Assembly: GCA_000995065.1 (NCBI GenBank)
Contig: LBWX01000004.1
Coordinates: 14,431 to 78,430, forward strand
Source of the DNA: a candidate division CPR2 bacterium GW2011_GWC2_39_35
GTDB lineage: Bacteria > Patescibacteriota > CPR2
Reading direction: 5' to 3'
DNA: 64,000 nucleotides
Position numbers and translations under genes: made by a program. Position 1 is the first letter of the stretch, and each line of letters opens with the position of its first letter. The notes under the pieces were generated by a model. The model was not told the origin of the DNA. It searched no databases and saw nothing but the letters and a program-made list of their open reading frames with translations. Positions 6,593-12,793 of the stretch are shown piece after piece.

Positions 6593-6714
6593 GAATGTCA
6601 AATGTCAAAATCCAAATGCCAAATCAAATCCTAAATCCAAATGTTAAAAAATATCATTTAGTCATTAAGTCATTTGTCATTCATTTGACATTTGAAATTT
6701 GAGCTTTGACATTG
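6593..6714. repeat. long AT-rich inverted repeat of the 'CAAATGTCAAATGA' family, copy 1
   Basis: Left arm gaatgtcaaatgtcaaaatccaaatgccaaat... pairs with right arm ...agtcatttgtcattcatttgacatttgaaatttgagctttgacatt. Confidence 0.6.
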
Positions 6715-6727
6715 CATATACACGCTT

Positions 6728-7516
6728 CTAGTAGTTCCTATCAACCTCTCCATAAACCAGGGAGGAAATGTTTTTAATAGTACCCTCAACATTAGCCAGA
6801 TTTGGATTATTGCTTTTGGTCATCACGCACAGAAGATAAGGATTGTCCGGATGATACACTATCCCGCAATCGTGCAATTCACGCTTGGAAAGAATAGCCA
6901 TATCCCCGCCAACAGGCTGAACCTCAGTAAAAAGACCAAACTTATGTGCAACATCTACTCCTTGAGGAACCCCGGCTACCAACCCTTCCTTAAAATCTAC
7001 CTGGCTTAATAGATTAAGTGCTTTCTCGGAGAGTTCCCTTCTCAAATAAGTCGCGTTATAAAGCACTCTAAAGAAATACGAAAAATCACCGGCCGTCATA
7101 TAATCTTGGGTTGATCTATCGGTTGGAGGAGAGAGCTGTAAATCTTTAAATGCCGTATCTAAAACCTGGCGATCTATATTATGCATCAGAGTATTGGTAG
7201 AAATATTATCGGAATATTTTATCATTTTCTCTATCAATTCTTCTACCGTATATGTGTTACCGCTTTTTGCAAAATCTTTCGGCTTTATTTCTAGCTCTCC
7301 GTTGGTATCCGGTTCGGTTATTGTAATTTTCTTAGATAAAATTCCCGGATCAGACCTCGCCGCATTTAAGTAACCAATCATTATCGGAATTTTGTGCAAA
7401 CTGGCCGGAAAAAATTTCTCTTCCGGATTGATGTTTACTTGATTGCCCGACTTGATATCCCTAAAAAAAACAGAAGCCGTATTTACATTGCCAGACTCCA
7501 CCTCTTTATCTACCAA
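6728..7516 (-). CDS. class-A beta-lactamase / PBP-like serine hydrolase, paralog 1 (no signal peptide in this ORF)
   Basis: 262 aa; SxxK motif (PASLHK), SDN motif (YSDNIST), KxG motif (HKFG); about 55% identical to ORF 7917..8699; ORF as called starts at a TTG. Confidence 0.5.
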   Translation of the reverse strand: MVDKEVESGNVNTASVFFRDIKSGNQVNINPEEKFFPASLHKIPIMIGYLNAARSDPGILSKKITITEPDTNGELEIKPKDFAKSGNTYTVEELIEKMIKYSDNISTNTLMHNIDRQVLDTAFKDLQLSPPTDRSTQDYMTAGDFSYFFRVLYNATYLRRELSEKALNLLSQVDFKEGLVAGVPQGVDVAHKFGLFTEVQPVGGDMAILSKRELHDCGIVYHPDNPYLLCVMTKSNNPNLANVEGTIKNISSLVYGEVDRNY

Positions 7517-7533
7517 TTGTTTAATTTTATTTT

Positions 7534-7716
7534 CTAAAAGAGTGGGCTAATAAACTTATAACCATTTAAACGAAGGGCTTTTAGATTTGAAGAATTAGTA
7601 TCGTCTAACAAAATTCCCTTTATTACCCAACCACCAATAAACCCAACAATAAGAACTGCGAAAAATATTGGGAACGGAAATTTGATGGTTTGTCTTGTGC
7701 TTTTTGATGATTTCAT
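7534..7716 (-). CDS. small single-TM peptide immediately upstream of beta-lactamase-like paralog 1
   Basis: 60 aa: MKSSKSTRQTIKFPFPIFFAVLIVGFIGGWVIKG...; ends ...YKFISPLF* 17 nt before the downstream TTG; same arrangement recurs at paralog 2. Confidence 0.35.
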   Translation of the reverse strand: MKSSKSTRQTIKFPFPIFFAVLIVGFIGGWVIKGILLDDTNSSNLKALRLNGYKFISPLF

Positions 7717-7916
7717 AACGACTAATAAATTATATCATATTTAGTGGTGTAGTTCTCTCCAAAAATGTCAGGTTTTGATACCCGTCACTTTAAATTATTG
7801 CTCGACCTTGTGGAGAGCTACATTAATATACTTCTCCATTTCAGTCGAAGAATAAAAATCTGACATTTTGTTTTAACATTGCTATAGGTACAAACGACTG
7901 AAAGCAGTAAAAAGCC

Positions 7917-8699
7917 TTACGGTGAAACATTGGCCGCTCTTTCTACTTCCTTATAAACTTCCGAAGAAATGCTTTTAATAGTGCTCTCGATTATTGGGGT
8001 ATCAGATATACTTTTTGTCATTACACAAAGAAAATAAGGCTCTCTCGGATGATAAACAATGCCGCAATCATGCAACTCGTTGTACACGGAATTTGAGCGA
8101 TCAATATTGCCGCCAAGGCCGTATTTATGCGCCACCGGAACATCTTTAGGAACTCCGGCCACCAGACCTTCTTTATAATCAACTTCGCTTAAAATATTAA
8201 GAGCTCTTTCGGATAAGTCCCTTTTTAAATATGTAGCATTGTATAATACCCTAAAGAAATAGGAAAAATCGCTTGCTGAAATATAATCCGCAACTTCACT
8301 CGTAGGATAAGGAATCTTTAGGTCTTTAAATGTTTGATCTAATAGATTTTGATCTATGTTATAGGTAAGCGCATACGCAGCGTTATTATCGGAATGCTTA
8401 ATCATTTTTTCAATTAGCTCTTGGACAGAATATGTTCTGCCATTTTTGGCATAATCTTTTGGCTTAATGCCCTGAACCGAGTTAGTGTCTTCCTCAAAAG
8501 ACACCATTATCTTTTTGTCTAAAATTTTAGGGTCCGTTCTAGCTAGTTTAAAATAAGCAATCATTACCGGAATTTTATGCAAACTGGCCGGATAGAACTT
8601 CTCTTTAGGATTAATGTTTATTTGATTGCCCGACTTGATATCCCTAAAAAAAACAGAAGCCGTATTTACATTGCCAGACTCCACCTCTTTATCTACCAA
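7917..8699 (-). CDS. class-A beta-lactamase / PBP-like serine hydrolase, paralog 2
   Basis: 260 aa; SxxK (PASLHK), SDN (HSDNNAA), HKYG; the first 25 aa are identical to paralog 1. Confidence 0.5.
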   Translation of the reverse strand: MVDKEVESGNVNTASVFFRDIKSGNQININPKEKFYPASLHKIPVMIAYFKLARTDPKILDKKIMVSFEEDTNSVQGIKPKDYAKNGRTYSVQELIEKMIKHSDNNAAYALTYNIDQNLLDQTFKDLKIPYPTSEVADYISASDFSYFFRVLYNATYLKRDLSERALNILSEVDYKEGLVAGVPKDVPVAHKYGLGGNIDRSNSVYNELHDCGIVYHPREPYFLCVMTKSISDTPIIESTIKSISSEVYKEVERAANVSP

Positions 8700-8716
8700 T
8701 TGTTTAATTTTATTTT

Positions 8717-10559: not shown

Positions 10560-10644
10560 CACCTTTTTTCTATTTTTAAGGCTAAACTGAGCAAAATATT
10601 ATTTCAAAGGGCTTTTTTACCCTCCTTAAGCTATTCTTAATTTA

Positions 10645-10989
10645 TCACTTCTTTATTGGCTTCGGTTCATTAAAACCTATCAAGACCATCGCCTTAAACT
10701 GATTTATCTTTGCAACTCCCCCATCAATTGTAAACTCTCGAGGCTTTTCCTGGCCAACATCTATTATTAAAGTACCCTTTTCGAGCTTGGTAAATAATGG
10801 CGTATGTCCTGGAAGTACCGCAAAATTGCCGTTTGTTCCCGGAGCAATGATCGACTTTGCTTTCCCCTCATACAAAACATTATCCATGTTTACAACTACA
10901 ACATCGATCTCTTCGGGAATCTTAGTTTTATCTAGAGATGGTTTTTGAGGCTTAGTAGTATCTTTAGTTGTTTCTTCCTTCTTATCCAA
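10645..10989 (-). CDS. atpC: F1 ATP synthase epsilon subunit
   Basis: ...IAPGTNGNFAVLPGHTPLFTKLEKGTLIID... matches the epsilon beta-sandwich; about 20-aa Lys/Thr-rich N-terminal extension; last gene of the atp operon. Confidence 0.8.
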   Translation of the reverse strand: MDKKEETTKDTTKPQKPSLDKTKIPEEIDVVVVNMDNVLYEGKAKSIIAPGTNGNFAVLPGHTPLFTKLEKGTLIIDVGQEKPREFTIDGGVAKINQFKAMVLIGFNEPKPIKK

Positions 10990-11040
10990 TTCAATCCTTA
11001 ATTAATGTATCTATTAATATATTTAGGATTATTTAAATAC

Positions 11041-11151
11041 CAAATGACAAAATCCAAATGTCAAATGAATGTCAAATGACTTAATTTCAAATGCTTTAAA
11101 CATTTAGTCATTAGGATTTTATTTGTAATTTGACATTTGAGCTTTGACATT
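11041..11151. repeat. same inverted-repeat family, copy 2 (atpD-atpC intergenic)
   Basis: caaatgacaaaatccaaatgtcaaatgaatgtcaaatgac ... gtcattaggattttatttgtaatttgacatttgagctttgacatt. Confidence 0.6.
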
Positions 11152-11202
11152 AACGCGCCTTACATATTAGTTATCTTATAATTCATTATCTTTGAGCTTT
11201 TA

Positions 11203-12624
11203 TTATTTTCCTTGTTTCATCTTTCGCCAGCTGTCTTCCACAGTGGCAATATTACCGGCCATATAGAACGGCTCATCCGAATACTCATCAAATTCCCCTT
11301 TTAGGATGCGGTCAACGCCGTCTACCGTCTCTTCCACCGTTACATAGACTCCCGGCACATTTGTAAACTTTTCTGCCGTAAAGAAAGGCTGAGATAGAAA
11401 TTTAAGGATCTTCTTGGCCCTGGATACAGTCACCTTCTCTACTTCTGAAAGCTCGTCTTCACCCAGGATTGCAATAATGTTTTGCAAAGAATGATACCGC
11501 TCAAGAAGCTTTAGGGTTGCTTTTAAGGTTTTATGATGCTTGTCGCCCAAAATACTAGCATCCAAGGTAGAACTTGAGGCCAAAGCATCCATAGCGGGAT
11601 AGATTTTTTGCTGAGCGATTTTTCTGGACAATACCACCACAGAATCAAGATGGGAAAAGATCGCCTGAATCGCCGGATCAGAAAAGTCATCCGCCGGCAC
11701 GTAAATCGCTTGAACCGAGGTAATAGATCCGACATCAGTAGACACAATTCTCTCCTGTACCTCGCCAATTTCCGAAGCCAAGGTAGACTGATAACCCGTT
11801 TCTGATGGAATTCTCCCAAGCACAGTAGACACTTCCATTCCAGCCTGGATAAATCGGAAAATGTTATCAATGAATAGAAGAATGTCATTTTTCTTCCAAT
11901 CCCTTAAATATTCAGCAATGGTAATGCCGGTTAGAGGAGTTCTAAAACGCATAGCCGGCGATTCGTTCATCTGGCCCAGCACAATAGCCACGTTTGGTAA
12001 AACATCGGTATCCCTTAAAGCTAAATAAAGCTCGTTACCCTCTCTGGTACGCTCCCCCACACCGCAAAAAACAGAGTTATTACCGTGCTTCATAGTAGTA
12101 TTGTGGATAATTTCTGTAACTAGCTGAGTTTTTCCAACACCGGCACCGCCGAAGAAGCCTGTTTTGCCGCCTTTTATAAAAGGCGTTAAGAAGTCTAGAG
12201 CTTTAATTCCGGTTTCGATAATGGTGTCAGCCGTACTTACTTGAACAAAATTTGGGCTTGGCTTATAAATTGGGTGGATCTCCTCCGTGTGTATTGGGCC
12301 GCAATCATCAACAGGAGCGCCAAAAATATTAACGATCCGGCCAAGAAGCTCGGGTCCAACCGGAACATGAAGAACATCGCCCGTATCTTCCACCTCTAAT
12401 CCAACCTTTAGGCCGGTAGAATGCCCCATAGCAATAGACCTTACCGTATGATTTGGCAAATGTTCGAAAACCTCTAGGATTAATCTTTGATCTTTTTCGT
12501 TTATTATCAGGGCATTATGAATTTCAGGTAGCTCGCCTGGAAAATGAACATCCACCACTGCTCCATGGATCCCGACAACCTTACCTATTCTTTTATGTTG
12601 CTCTTGAATTTTTTGTTCTGTCAT
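11203..12624 (-). CDS. atpD: F1 ATP synthase beta subunit
   Basis: 473 aa; Walker A GGAGVGKT; strongly conserved beta-subunit sequence throughout. Confidence 0.95.
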
Positions 12625-12664
12625 GAATGTTTATATTCCCCTTATATAGCTTTATTCTAAATTA

Positions 12665-12793
12665 AAATCCAAATGTCAAAGCTCAAATGCCAAATGAATG
12701 TCAAATGACTAATGACCAATTGCCCAATTATTAATTTTTTGACATTTAGTCATTAGGATTTCATTTGTAATTTGACATTTAGATTTTGACATT
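12665..12793. repeat. same inverted-repeat family, copy 3 (atpG-atpD intergenic)
   Basis: aaatccaaatgtcaaagctcaaatgccaaatgaatgtcaaatgac ... gtcattaggatttcatttgtaatttgacatttagattttgacatt. Confidence 0.6.

Follow-up and report, generated by a model that had tools for sequence, protein, structure and literature searches.

Foldback elements with degenerate heptamer arms in mRNA spacers of a CPR2 bacterium: probable gene-less relatives of rRNA intervening sequences

The intervening sequence (IVS) in the 23S rRNA of Coxiella is a 428-nt selfish element that carries an S23p open reading frame (ORF); its terminal inverted repeats form a stem that is cut by RNase III, and 3-4 tandem GACAGAT heptamers, variable in number among strains, lie just before the S23p ATG (PMC4990558). 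The family to which such proteins belong, PF05635, is related to Avd of the diversity-generating retroelements (PMC10053308). Here we describe three AT-rich foldback elements, A, B and C, in a 64,000-nt stretch (the window; contig LBWX01000004.1) of a candidate division CPR2 genome from Rifle aquifer groundwater. Two of them separate genes of the atp operon. We consider it probable that all three are ORF-less derivatives, resembling miniature inverted-repeat transposable elements (MITEs), of an IVS-type selfish foldback element that colonises mRNA spacers.

The likeness to the IVSs of Coxiella burnetii and Leptospira lies in the selfish insertion within a host transcript, in complementary ends that form a long stem and in heptamers at the start of S23p; in some strains the IVS ORF has decayed or been deleted, and its sporadic distribution points to horizontal transfer (PMC4990558). 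Our elements differ in that they lie in spacers of protein-coding mRNA and not in rRNA helices 9, 25 or 45; Rfam finds no rRNA anywhere in the window. They have also lost the ORF, their arms are longer (45-50 nt, 5-7 words) and about 80% paired, and their cleavage is a prediction only.

MITEs and REPINs (hairpins of repetitive extragenic palindromic, or REP, doublets; PMC3116915) likewise derive from a parent that bears a gene, and are short, extragenic and non-coding, occur in multiple copies and form hairpins. Here, however, no target-site duplication was seen and no transposase or RAYT partner came to light in the sequence covered, the parent carries a small gene for an Avd-like four-helix bundle, and the arms are arrays of tandem words with fuzzy ends instead of REP doublets. 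Drosophila foldback (FB) transposons have long inverted arms made of tandem degenerate short repeats, their arm length varies and many of their copies are gene-less. They are eukaryotic, far larger and without any sequence or protein relationship to our elements, so the comparison is one of analogy only.

Two sets of prokaryotic short repeats are also similar. The 'global regulator binding sites' of classes 1-3 in Geobacter metallireducens are multicopy intergenic site pairs on opposite strands, built as tandem arrays of 3-5 units of 7-9 nt, some of them intra-operon, as at proB-proA (PMC2700814). Their words are different (GTTGCTYN, TCTCCGTS and MTYCTGA), and the authors proposed that they bind IHF/HU (Aklujkar 2009, PMC2700814); the paper reports no link to PF05635, and we compare these sites by description only. 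TAACTGA arrays (PMC4679880) and the cyanobacterial short tandemly repeated repetitive (STRR) sequences are degenerate tandem heptamers, intergenic and scattered across phyla, for which horizontal transfer is suspected. Unlike our elements, they have been described as repeats in direct orientation that mostly precede start codons and have no associated gene; the TAACTGA paper makes no link to PF05635 genes.

Elements A, B and C and their heptamer arms

The elements and their immediate neighbours in the window are as follows.

6593-6714, no strand assigned: element A, a foldback without an ORF, made up of a CAAA-type arm, then a short loop and a TTTG-type arm, in the spacer between the beta-lactamase-like gene and the PD40 gene
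6595-6660, plus strand: what is left in element A of an IVP (PF05635) gene, namely its 5' end, MSNVKIQMPNQILNPNVKKYHL, found by tblastn with the consensus IVP N-terminus
11036-11151, no strand assigned: element B, in the spacer between atpD (stop 11203) and atpC (start 10989), with the IVP-N-terminus-like arm on the minus strand
12665-12797, no strand assigned: element C, in the spacer between atpG (stop 12864) and atpD (start 12624); a close paralogue of B
12816-12858, plus strand: solo TTTG-type array of another word family (TTTGCCT, TTTGAAT), abutting the atpG stop
10645-13757, minus strand: host genes atpG (12864-13757), atpD (11203-12624) and atpC (10645-10989), by Pfam
6728-7516, minus strand: beta-lactamase-like gene, by Pfam
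4541-6499, minus strand: PD40 propeller gene, by Pfam

A first-pass annotation had reported three related inverted repeats, one between the beta-lactamase-like and propeller genes and the others at atpD|atpC and atpG|atpD. The repeats are there, with B beginning at 11036 instead of 11041 and C ending at 12797, and Pfam confirms the gene context, in which all flanking genes lie on the minus strand. Element A lies 14 nt past the beta-lactamase-like stop and 94 nt ahead of the PD40 start. The two atp junctions measure 239 nt (atpG|atpD) and 213 nt (atpD|atpC), the remainder of the former being occupied by the solo array.

The elements are 116-133 nt long, with 25-28% GC, and align three ways at a mean column identity of 78%. 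In direct orientation, the aligned positions of B and C are 91% identical, and the two have non-periodic stretches (~40 nt) and arm asymmetries in common, while A matches C best when inverted (88%). A, B and C are paralogous insertions, and B and C are copies of one another. With at most one mismatch allowed, the sequence AATGTCAAATG has 14 occurrences in the window where 1.97 would be expected; 0 of 100 shuffles reached 14, and 11 of the 14 fall inside the three sites. A hidden Markov model (HMM) of the arm picked out both arms of element A (6601-6647, minus strand, E 2.5e-7; 6667-6705, plus strand, E 2.9e-6) and over the 64 kb recognised A, B and C only; the window also has several hairpins composed of different words.

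The earlier description needs one correction. Inverted arms of about 50 nt are indeed present, but instead of matching as true palindromes they consist of degenerate heptamers in mirror-image arrays, (NNNCAAA)n-loop-(TTTGNNN)n, and the layout across the family is 5'-(NNNCAAA)5-7 ... (TTTGNNN)5-7-3'. Of 259 distances from one TTTG to the next, 167 are of 7 nt and 30 of 11 nt (a 'hinge'), and the autocorrelation peaks at lag 7. The most frequent words are TTTGACA (30), TTTGGAT (30), TTTGAAC (18), TTTGAAA (15) and TTTGAGC (15). Runs of at least three TTTGNNN or NNNCAAA words number 11 in the window, compared to 0.03 in block shuffles. As with the complementary borders of IVSs, the arms (45-50 nt) can form a long stem, 81% of cells being paired across the family. 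The arm ends are fuzzy, and the number of outer words varies among elements.

IVP genes and the wider family

At locus L033, a 125-aa gene sits in the 'loop' of an otherwise typical element. By tblastn we found seven such genes in six pattern-selected loci, each between a CAAA-type and a TTTG-type arm, and all seven are S23p/Avd-like members of PF05635 (23S_rRNA_IVP) and TIGR02436 ('four helix bundle protein'). Full-length members of the family hold a PF05635 gene of ~110-130 aa between the arms, with its annotated 5' end encoded by the CAAA arm; in the full elements L180 and L185 the order is arm, ATG, ORF, stop, arm. The N-termini of the homologues, MSNQIQNPNDKKKYDL and MSNAKAQMSNQAQNPNDKK, are the CAAA arm translated, and the hinge, CAAATCAAATCC, encodes N-Q-I-Q. 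As in IVSs, tandem heptamers at the 5' stem overlap the gene start: they have period 7 and the arm encodes MSNQIQNPN.... IVP homologues fall into more than 6,458 clusters, many from the Candidate Phyla Radiation (CPR), and contigs from Rifle groundwater also have one IVP protein (P0016) encoded between rpsQ and the gene that follows it.

The first ~22 codons of an IVP gene are preserved at site A. This remnant is 74% identical to the consensus over 23 aligned positions (E 4e-11) and continues past the repeats as far as KKY(D/H)L; the TTTG arm follows directly, the body of the ORF being deleted. At the DNA level, site A is 81% identical (92/114) to the arms plus first 14 codons of L180. In B and C the corresponding arm is on the minus strand. 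None of the three has a PF05635 ORF of the kind found in IVSs; elements with the same arms that do have one are L033, L180 and L185.

We also examined eight PF05635 genes chosen without any DNA pattern, from plasmids of Nostoc, Pseudanabaena, Planktothrix, Chlorohelix, Gloeocapsa, Chondrinema and Treponema. All eight (8/8) were flanked by mirror-image short tandem repeats, with inverted-flank scores of 17-35 compared to 11.1 +/- 3.4 (95th percentile 16) for 826 control genes. The flanking words include AATTCAA, CCCCAAT/CGTAAAT, GTCGGAG, TAACTGA-type and CTCTCCG, and several of the genes are intra-operon (RND adaptor|permease, DUF1156|Swt1-HEPN, DrmD|PglX). TAACTGA-type and CCCCAAT-type words flank the PF05635 genes in the Chondrinema and Planktothrix plasmids; the CCCCAAT word we take to be STRR1. 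For a connection of STRR and TAACTGA arrays to IVP elements, these eight loci provide a lead and do not demonstrate that the two are equivalent.

When genomes representing species were scanned for a 24-nt arm pattern, at least 120 genome stretches matched. Among the matches listed are many classes of the CPR, Thermodesulfobacteriota, Acidobacteriota, Planctomycetota, Omnitrophota, Bacteroidota and others, including a 3.4-Mb chromosome and genomes above 50% GC, and 90 of the 148 matches have a partner arm at hairpin distance. In an alignment of 27 elements, CAAA and TTTG are invariant at the 7-nt phase, the trinucleotides vary and an irregular 'hinge' keeps a fixed place. The arm order CAAA to TTTG holds in 36 of 38 pairs found by regular expression and in 32 of 32 opposite-orientation pairs found by the arm HMM. 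Copies within a genome (similarity 0.62-0.82) are only slightly more alike than copies from different genomes (mean 0.65, maximum 0.90). In viral contigs the matches are mostly plain (TTTGACA)n microsatellites, with two or three of the hairpin type. This is a widespread family in which one architecture is kept in many phyla. Our literature search by sequence words and topic returned no description of this heptamer-arm family, nor did the search return a paper on PF05635 genes with heptamer arms outside rRNA, or on ORF-less copies.

Some arrays found in the course of the scan are arranged differently. At L081 7780-7926, L091 1392-1547 and L112 ~1950-2100 (Acidobacteriota), a TTTG array is followed by ~100 nt of GC-rich sequence and then a CAAA array, the opposite order, which may represent two adjacent elements or a different arrangement. 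Arrays in the CAAA orientation are stop-free in every frame, and in-frame (AATGTCA)n arrays occur inside real CPR coding sequences (L106 ~2040-2075, L012, L027, L105), for example in a tsaD-like gene (...KPVRKCQMSNVKCQNYTLAN...).

The distribution of the elements at the atp locus is sporadic, as is that of IVSs. In metagenomic relatives with AtpD 68-87% identical, atpG, atpD and atpC abut or overlap and an element of the A/B/C type is absent. In L133, for instance, the genes lie at 3126-4004 (atpG), 3998-5401 (atpD) and 5380-5679 (atpC) with no element between them; L140 is another such relative. Two relatives carry other repeats at atpG|atpD, and relative L145 has a different short heptamer array there.

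Weighing the explanations

If A, B and C are ORF-less derivatives of an IVS-type element, then upon transcription of the atp operon each element would fold into an imperfect, AU-rich stem of 45-50 bp. By analogy with the Coxiella IVS, such a stem is a likely RNase III substrate, and the polycistronic RNA would thus probably be cut at atpG|atpD and atpD|atpC. Cleavage would then be a by-product of a tolerated insertion rather than the work of a purpose-built regulator. The suggestion of intra-operon RNA processing made in the first-pass annotation is, in this sense, plausible only by analogy; we see no indication of selection for processing, there being no covariation, no sense-strand bias and no conservation in relatives.

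Several observations weigh against this origin. Ten assemblies of the same population show no difference at the sites they include (all ten include B and C, five include A), and thus no insertion polymorphism. Inspection by eye revealed no target-site duplication at A, B, C or the listed loci, defined termini were not seen in family elements, and none of about 90 elements has a transposase between its arms. The 64-kb window, to which the search of this genome was confined, holds no PF05635 homologue, and sequence beyond the repeat arms is kept at site A only; B and C are tied to the IVP genes by arm similarity, part of which is low-complexity. The genome loci linked to IVP genes were chosen by their arm pattern, one of the plasmid genes (L176, Gloeocapsa, 350-800) has reversed arm polarity, with TTTTAGA 5' and TCTAAAA 3', and the start of ORFs within an arm could partly be explained by gene callers running through stop-free repeats. 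Finally, RNase III cleavage is a prediction, and the stems are only about 80% paired.

A broader proposal, which we offer tentatively and think rather unlikely as a whole, is that PF05635 genes with mirror heptamer arms belong to a single class of mobile foldback elements, very large and spread across phyla, with the 23S IVSs as its rRNA-resident case and an Avd-like protein that recognises the arrays. In such a scheme the Avd-like protein, as a nucleic-acid-binding protein, would bind the heptamer arrays and take part in mobility or maintenance, and ORF-less copies could explain the CPR spacer hairpins, at least some STRR-like and TAACTGA-like arrays and perhaps the paired sites of Geobacter. 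Should the association hold genome-wide, the intergenic heptamer repeats reported separately from cyanobacteria, Beggiatoaceae and Geobacter would have a common explanation. Our results also suggest that 'intervening sequences' would be one niche of a far commoner selfish element built around the PF05635 family, not an rRNA curiosity. For the long AT-rich hairpins in many spacers of this CPR genome, including junctions within the atp and ribosomal-protein operons, the IVS-type derivation suggests an origin and an RNA-level consequence (the predicted RNase III cleavage). In annotation, such hairpins should not be taken for operon-specific regulators, promoters or terminators.

The alternative that A, B and C are purpose-built cis-regulatory hairpins of the atp operon, acting in processing, stability or stoichiometry with their structure under selection, seems to us improbable. 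The hairpin potential noted in the first pass is borne out by fold prediction with RNA parameters, the z-scores being relative to dinucleotide shuffles. In the mRNA sense (minus strand) the folds are stable: -40.1 kcal/mol (z -6.1) for A, -25.7 (z -2.7) for B and -41.9 (z -5.9) for C, the plus-strand values being -23.2 (z -2.5), -24.8 (z -3.1) and -35.8 (z -5.3). In addition, one element lies on either side of atpD, and each complex requires three copies of the atpD product. However, the elements are absent in relatives with overlapping atp genes, and the same family also occurs in convergent, divergent and unrelated contexts.

Signs of selection on the structure were also lacking. RNAalifold predicted no consensus structure for the family alignment, and Rfam gave no match at A, B or C, either at the gathering score or with E values of up to 10. 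When the 27 elements were made to adopt the mirror structure, 81.0% of positions paired, compared to 81.7 +/- 0.6% with 3' letters shuffled among sequences, and the covariation score was 0.107 against 0.113 shuffled, so that no covariation was detected. Complementarity to an element's own partner arm was no greater than to a foreign one (39.7 vs 40.7; inner arms 19.1 vs 18.3, p = 0.14). Mismatches of the G·U/wobble type showed no excess in the sense strand (72, compared to 68 antisense), giving no signal of selection at the RNA level, and solo arrays in co-directional spacers read as A-type or T-type in the sense strand about equally (30 vs 29). Solo arrays inside ORFs do have an orientation bias, of 39 to 3, which arises from the TGA stops in TTTGACA and partly from a crude ORF caller crossing stop-free arrays. 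The constraint on this family acts on words, not on pairing.

We give little credence to the view that the arms are microsatellite-like heptamer arrays, expanded by slippage where they now stand without ever having moved. Among long simple repeats of prokaryotes, heptanucleotides are the most common (Mrazek 2007, cited in PMC4679880); there are plain (TTTGACA)n arrays, also in genes and in giant-virus contigs, and the L145 relative has its different heptamer array at atpG|atpD. Moreover, L185 and L186 (773-830), which are one PF05635 locus in two samples, differ in that 46 nt between direct repeats of TTTAACATTTGGATTTT are deleted from one 3' arm, so that arms do change by slippage or recombination. 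Growth in place does not account for the ~40 nt of non-periodic sequence and the arm asymmetries common to B and C, for the hinge, total length and arm order constrained across phyla, or for the IVP codons past the repeats at site A. Slippage probably reshapes the arms but leaves their origin unexplained.

It is quite unlikely that the elements serve as internal or bidirectional promoters through outward-facing sigma-70 -35 boxes. The multiple TTGACA hexamers recorded earlier are real: 13 of the 38 copies in the window (both strands) fall in the 371 nt of A, B and C, all of them pointing outward, and site A has an 11/12 match upstream of PD40 (TTGACA, 18-nt spacer, TATTAT). Nevertheless, promoter-like matches in 6400-13000 are not enriched (24, compared to 20.0 +/- 3.9 in shuffles), a good sigma-70-like match is found at site A only, B and C being without one, and elements also lie between convergent genes. 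TTGACA is accounted for as the complement of the arm words that encode M-S-N. The gene-orientation context of the elements (35 tandem, 4 convergent, 4 divergent) does not differ from background (170, 32 and 32). These results speak against the internal promoters or attenuators that had been suggested.

That these are classical MITEs, mobilised in trans by a DDE transposase, we regard as very unlikely, despite their inverted arms, small size, intergenic position and multiple copies. The lack of target-site duplications and of a transposase partner argues that they are not classical MITEs, as does the lack of sharp conserved termini. The sole long-range arm pair, in L125, encloses ordinary membrane-protein and envelope genes and no transposase, and the gene-bearing relatives encode PF05635 instead. 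What survives of the first-pass label 'MITE-like mobile repeat' is that the elements are paralogous, dispersed, absent in relatives and ORF-deleted in appearance.

Bidirectional intrinsic terminators or attenuators, in which an A-rich and then a T-rich arm on both strands mimics A-tract, hairpin and U-tract, are extremely improbable: a GC-rich core hairpin is present in a minority (window 55471-55656; L017, L026, L102), yet most elements have no GC stem or U-run, convergent positions are not enriched (4/43 vs 32/234 background) and divergent ones occur, canonical GC-rich terminators serve elsewhere in the window, a terminator scan shows no enrichment and finds none at A, B or C, and termination ahead of atpD would contradict subunit stoichiometry.

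The idea that Csp/S1-type proteins bind the UUUG heptamers was dropped, since neither strand is favoured. We likewise found no support for Rho rut sites, for boxes of the IHF or Fur-like kind, for integron attC sites, for DNA uptake sequences or for an origin-like skew.

Other repeats and genes in the window

A second foldback family, with ATTTCTAA/TTAGAAAT words, is found at 22926-23047, 36445-36506, 54284-54437 (fusA|rpsG) and 55471-55656 (rpsL|rpoC), the last copy having a GC-rich core hairpin. Part of it is TCTAATCAAATCCCAATTTCTAATGAC, which reads SNQIPISND where the IVP N-terminus has SNQIQNPND, and its hairpins are like those on either side of the PF05635 gene in L046.

AT-rich mirror arrays made of other TTTGNNN words lie at 16648-16746, 21652-21758 and 37958-38071 (secY|rplO), and solo arms with such words lie at 32396-32476 and 35924-35975 as well as at 12816-12858. 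Arrays of other words (TTTGATC, TTTGACC, TTTGAAT) sit in conserved operons, including upstream of atpF and in secY-rplO. Hairpins with a purine-rich 5' arm and a pyrimidine-rich 3' arm occur at 18832-18937, 24640-24781, 35415-35490 and 54925-54982; in these, for example AGGAAATAG.../...CTATTTCCT, the A-rich arm again comes first and the T-rich arm second, with different words.

Separate from the A/B/C family is a dispersed, REP-like family of GC-rich hairpins, CCCTCTCCC-loop-GGGAGAGGG followed by G-runs, with sites at ~29270, 32355, 39190-39232, 40770-40806 and 55540-55575. Another hairpin, ending in GTCATTGCGAG...CTCGCAATGAC, occurs at 8950-9060 and 31793-31850 of the window and, beside a TTTG-type arm, at 5880-5965 of the Roizmanbacteria locus L125.

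A tRNA cluster at 21514-22724 gives five Rfam hits. A 58-nt repeat precedes three of the tRNAs (21514, 21999, 22269), and the last copy, 22653-22724, is decayed (35.8 bits). The beta-lactamase-like genes at 6728-7516 and 7917-8699 are tandem duplicates with a period of 1183 nt and 73-86% identity; element A follows the downstream copy only. Upstream of atpF, a 664-aa ORF (16775-18769) has a weak ATP-synt_C match, where NCBI annotations call a 121-aa c subunit instead.

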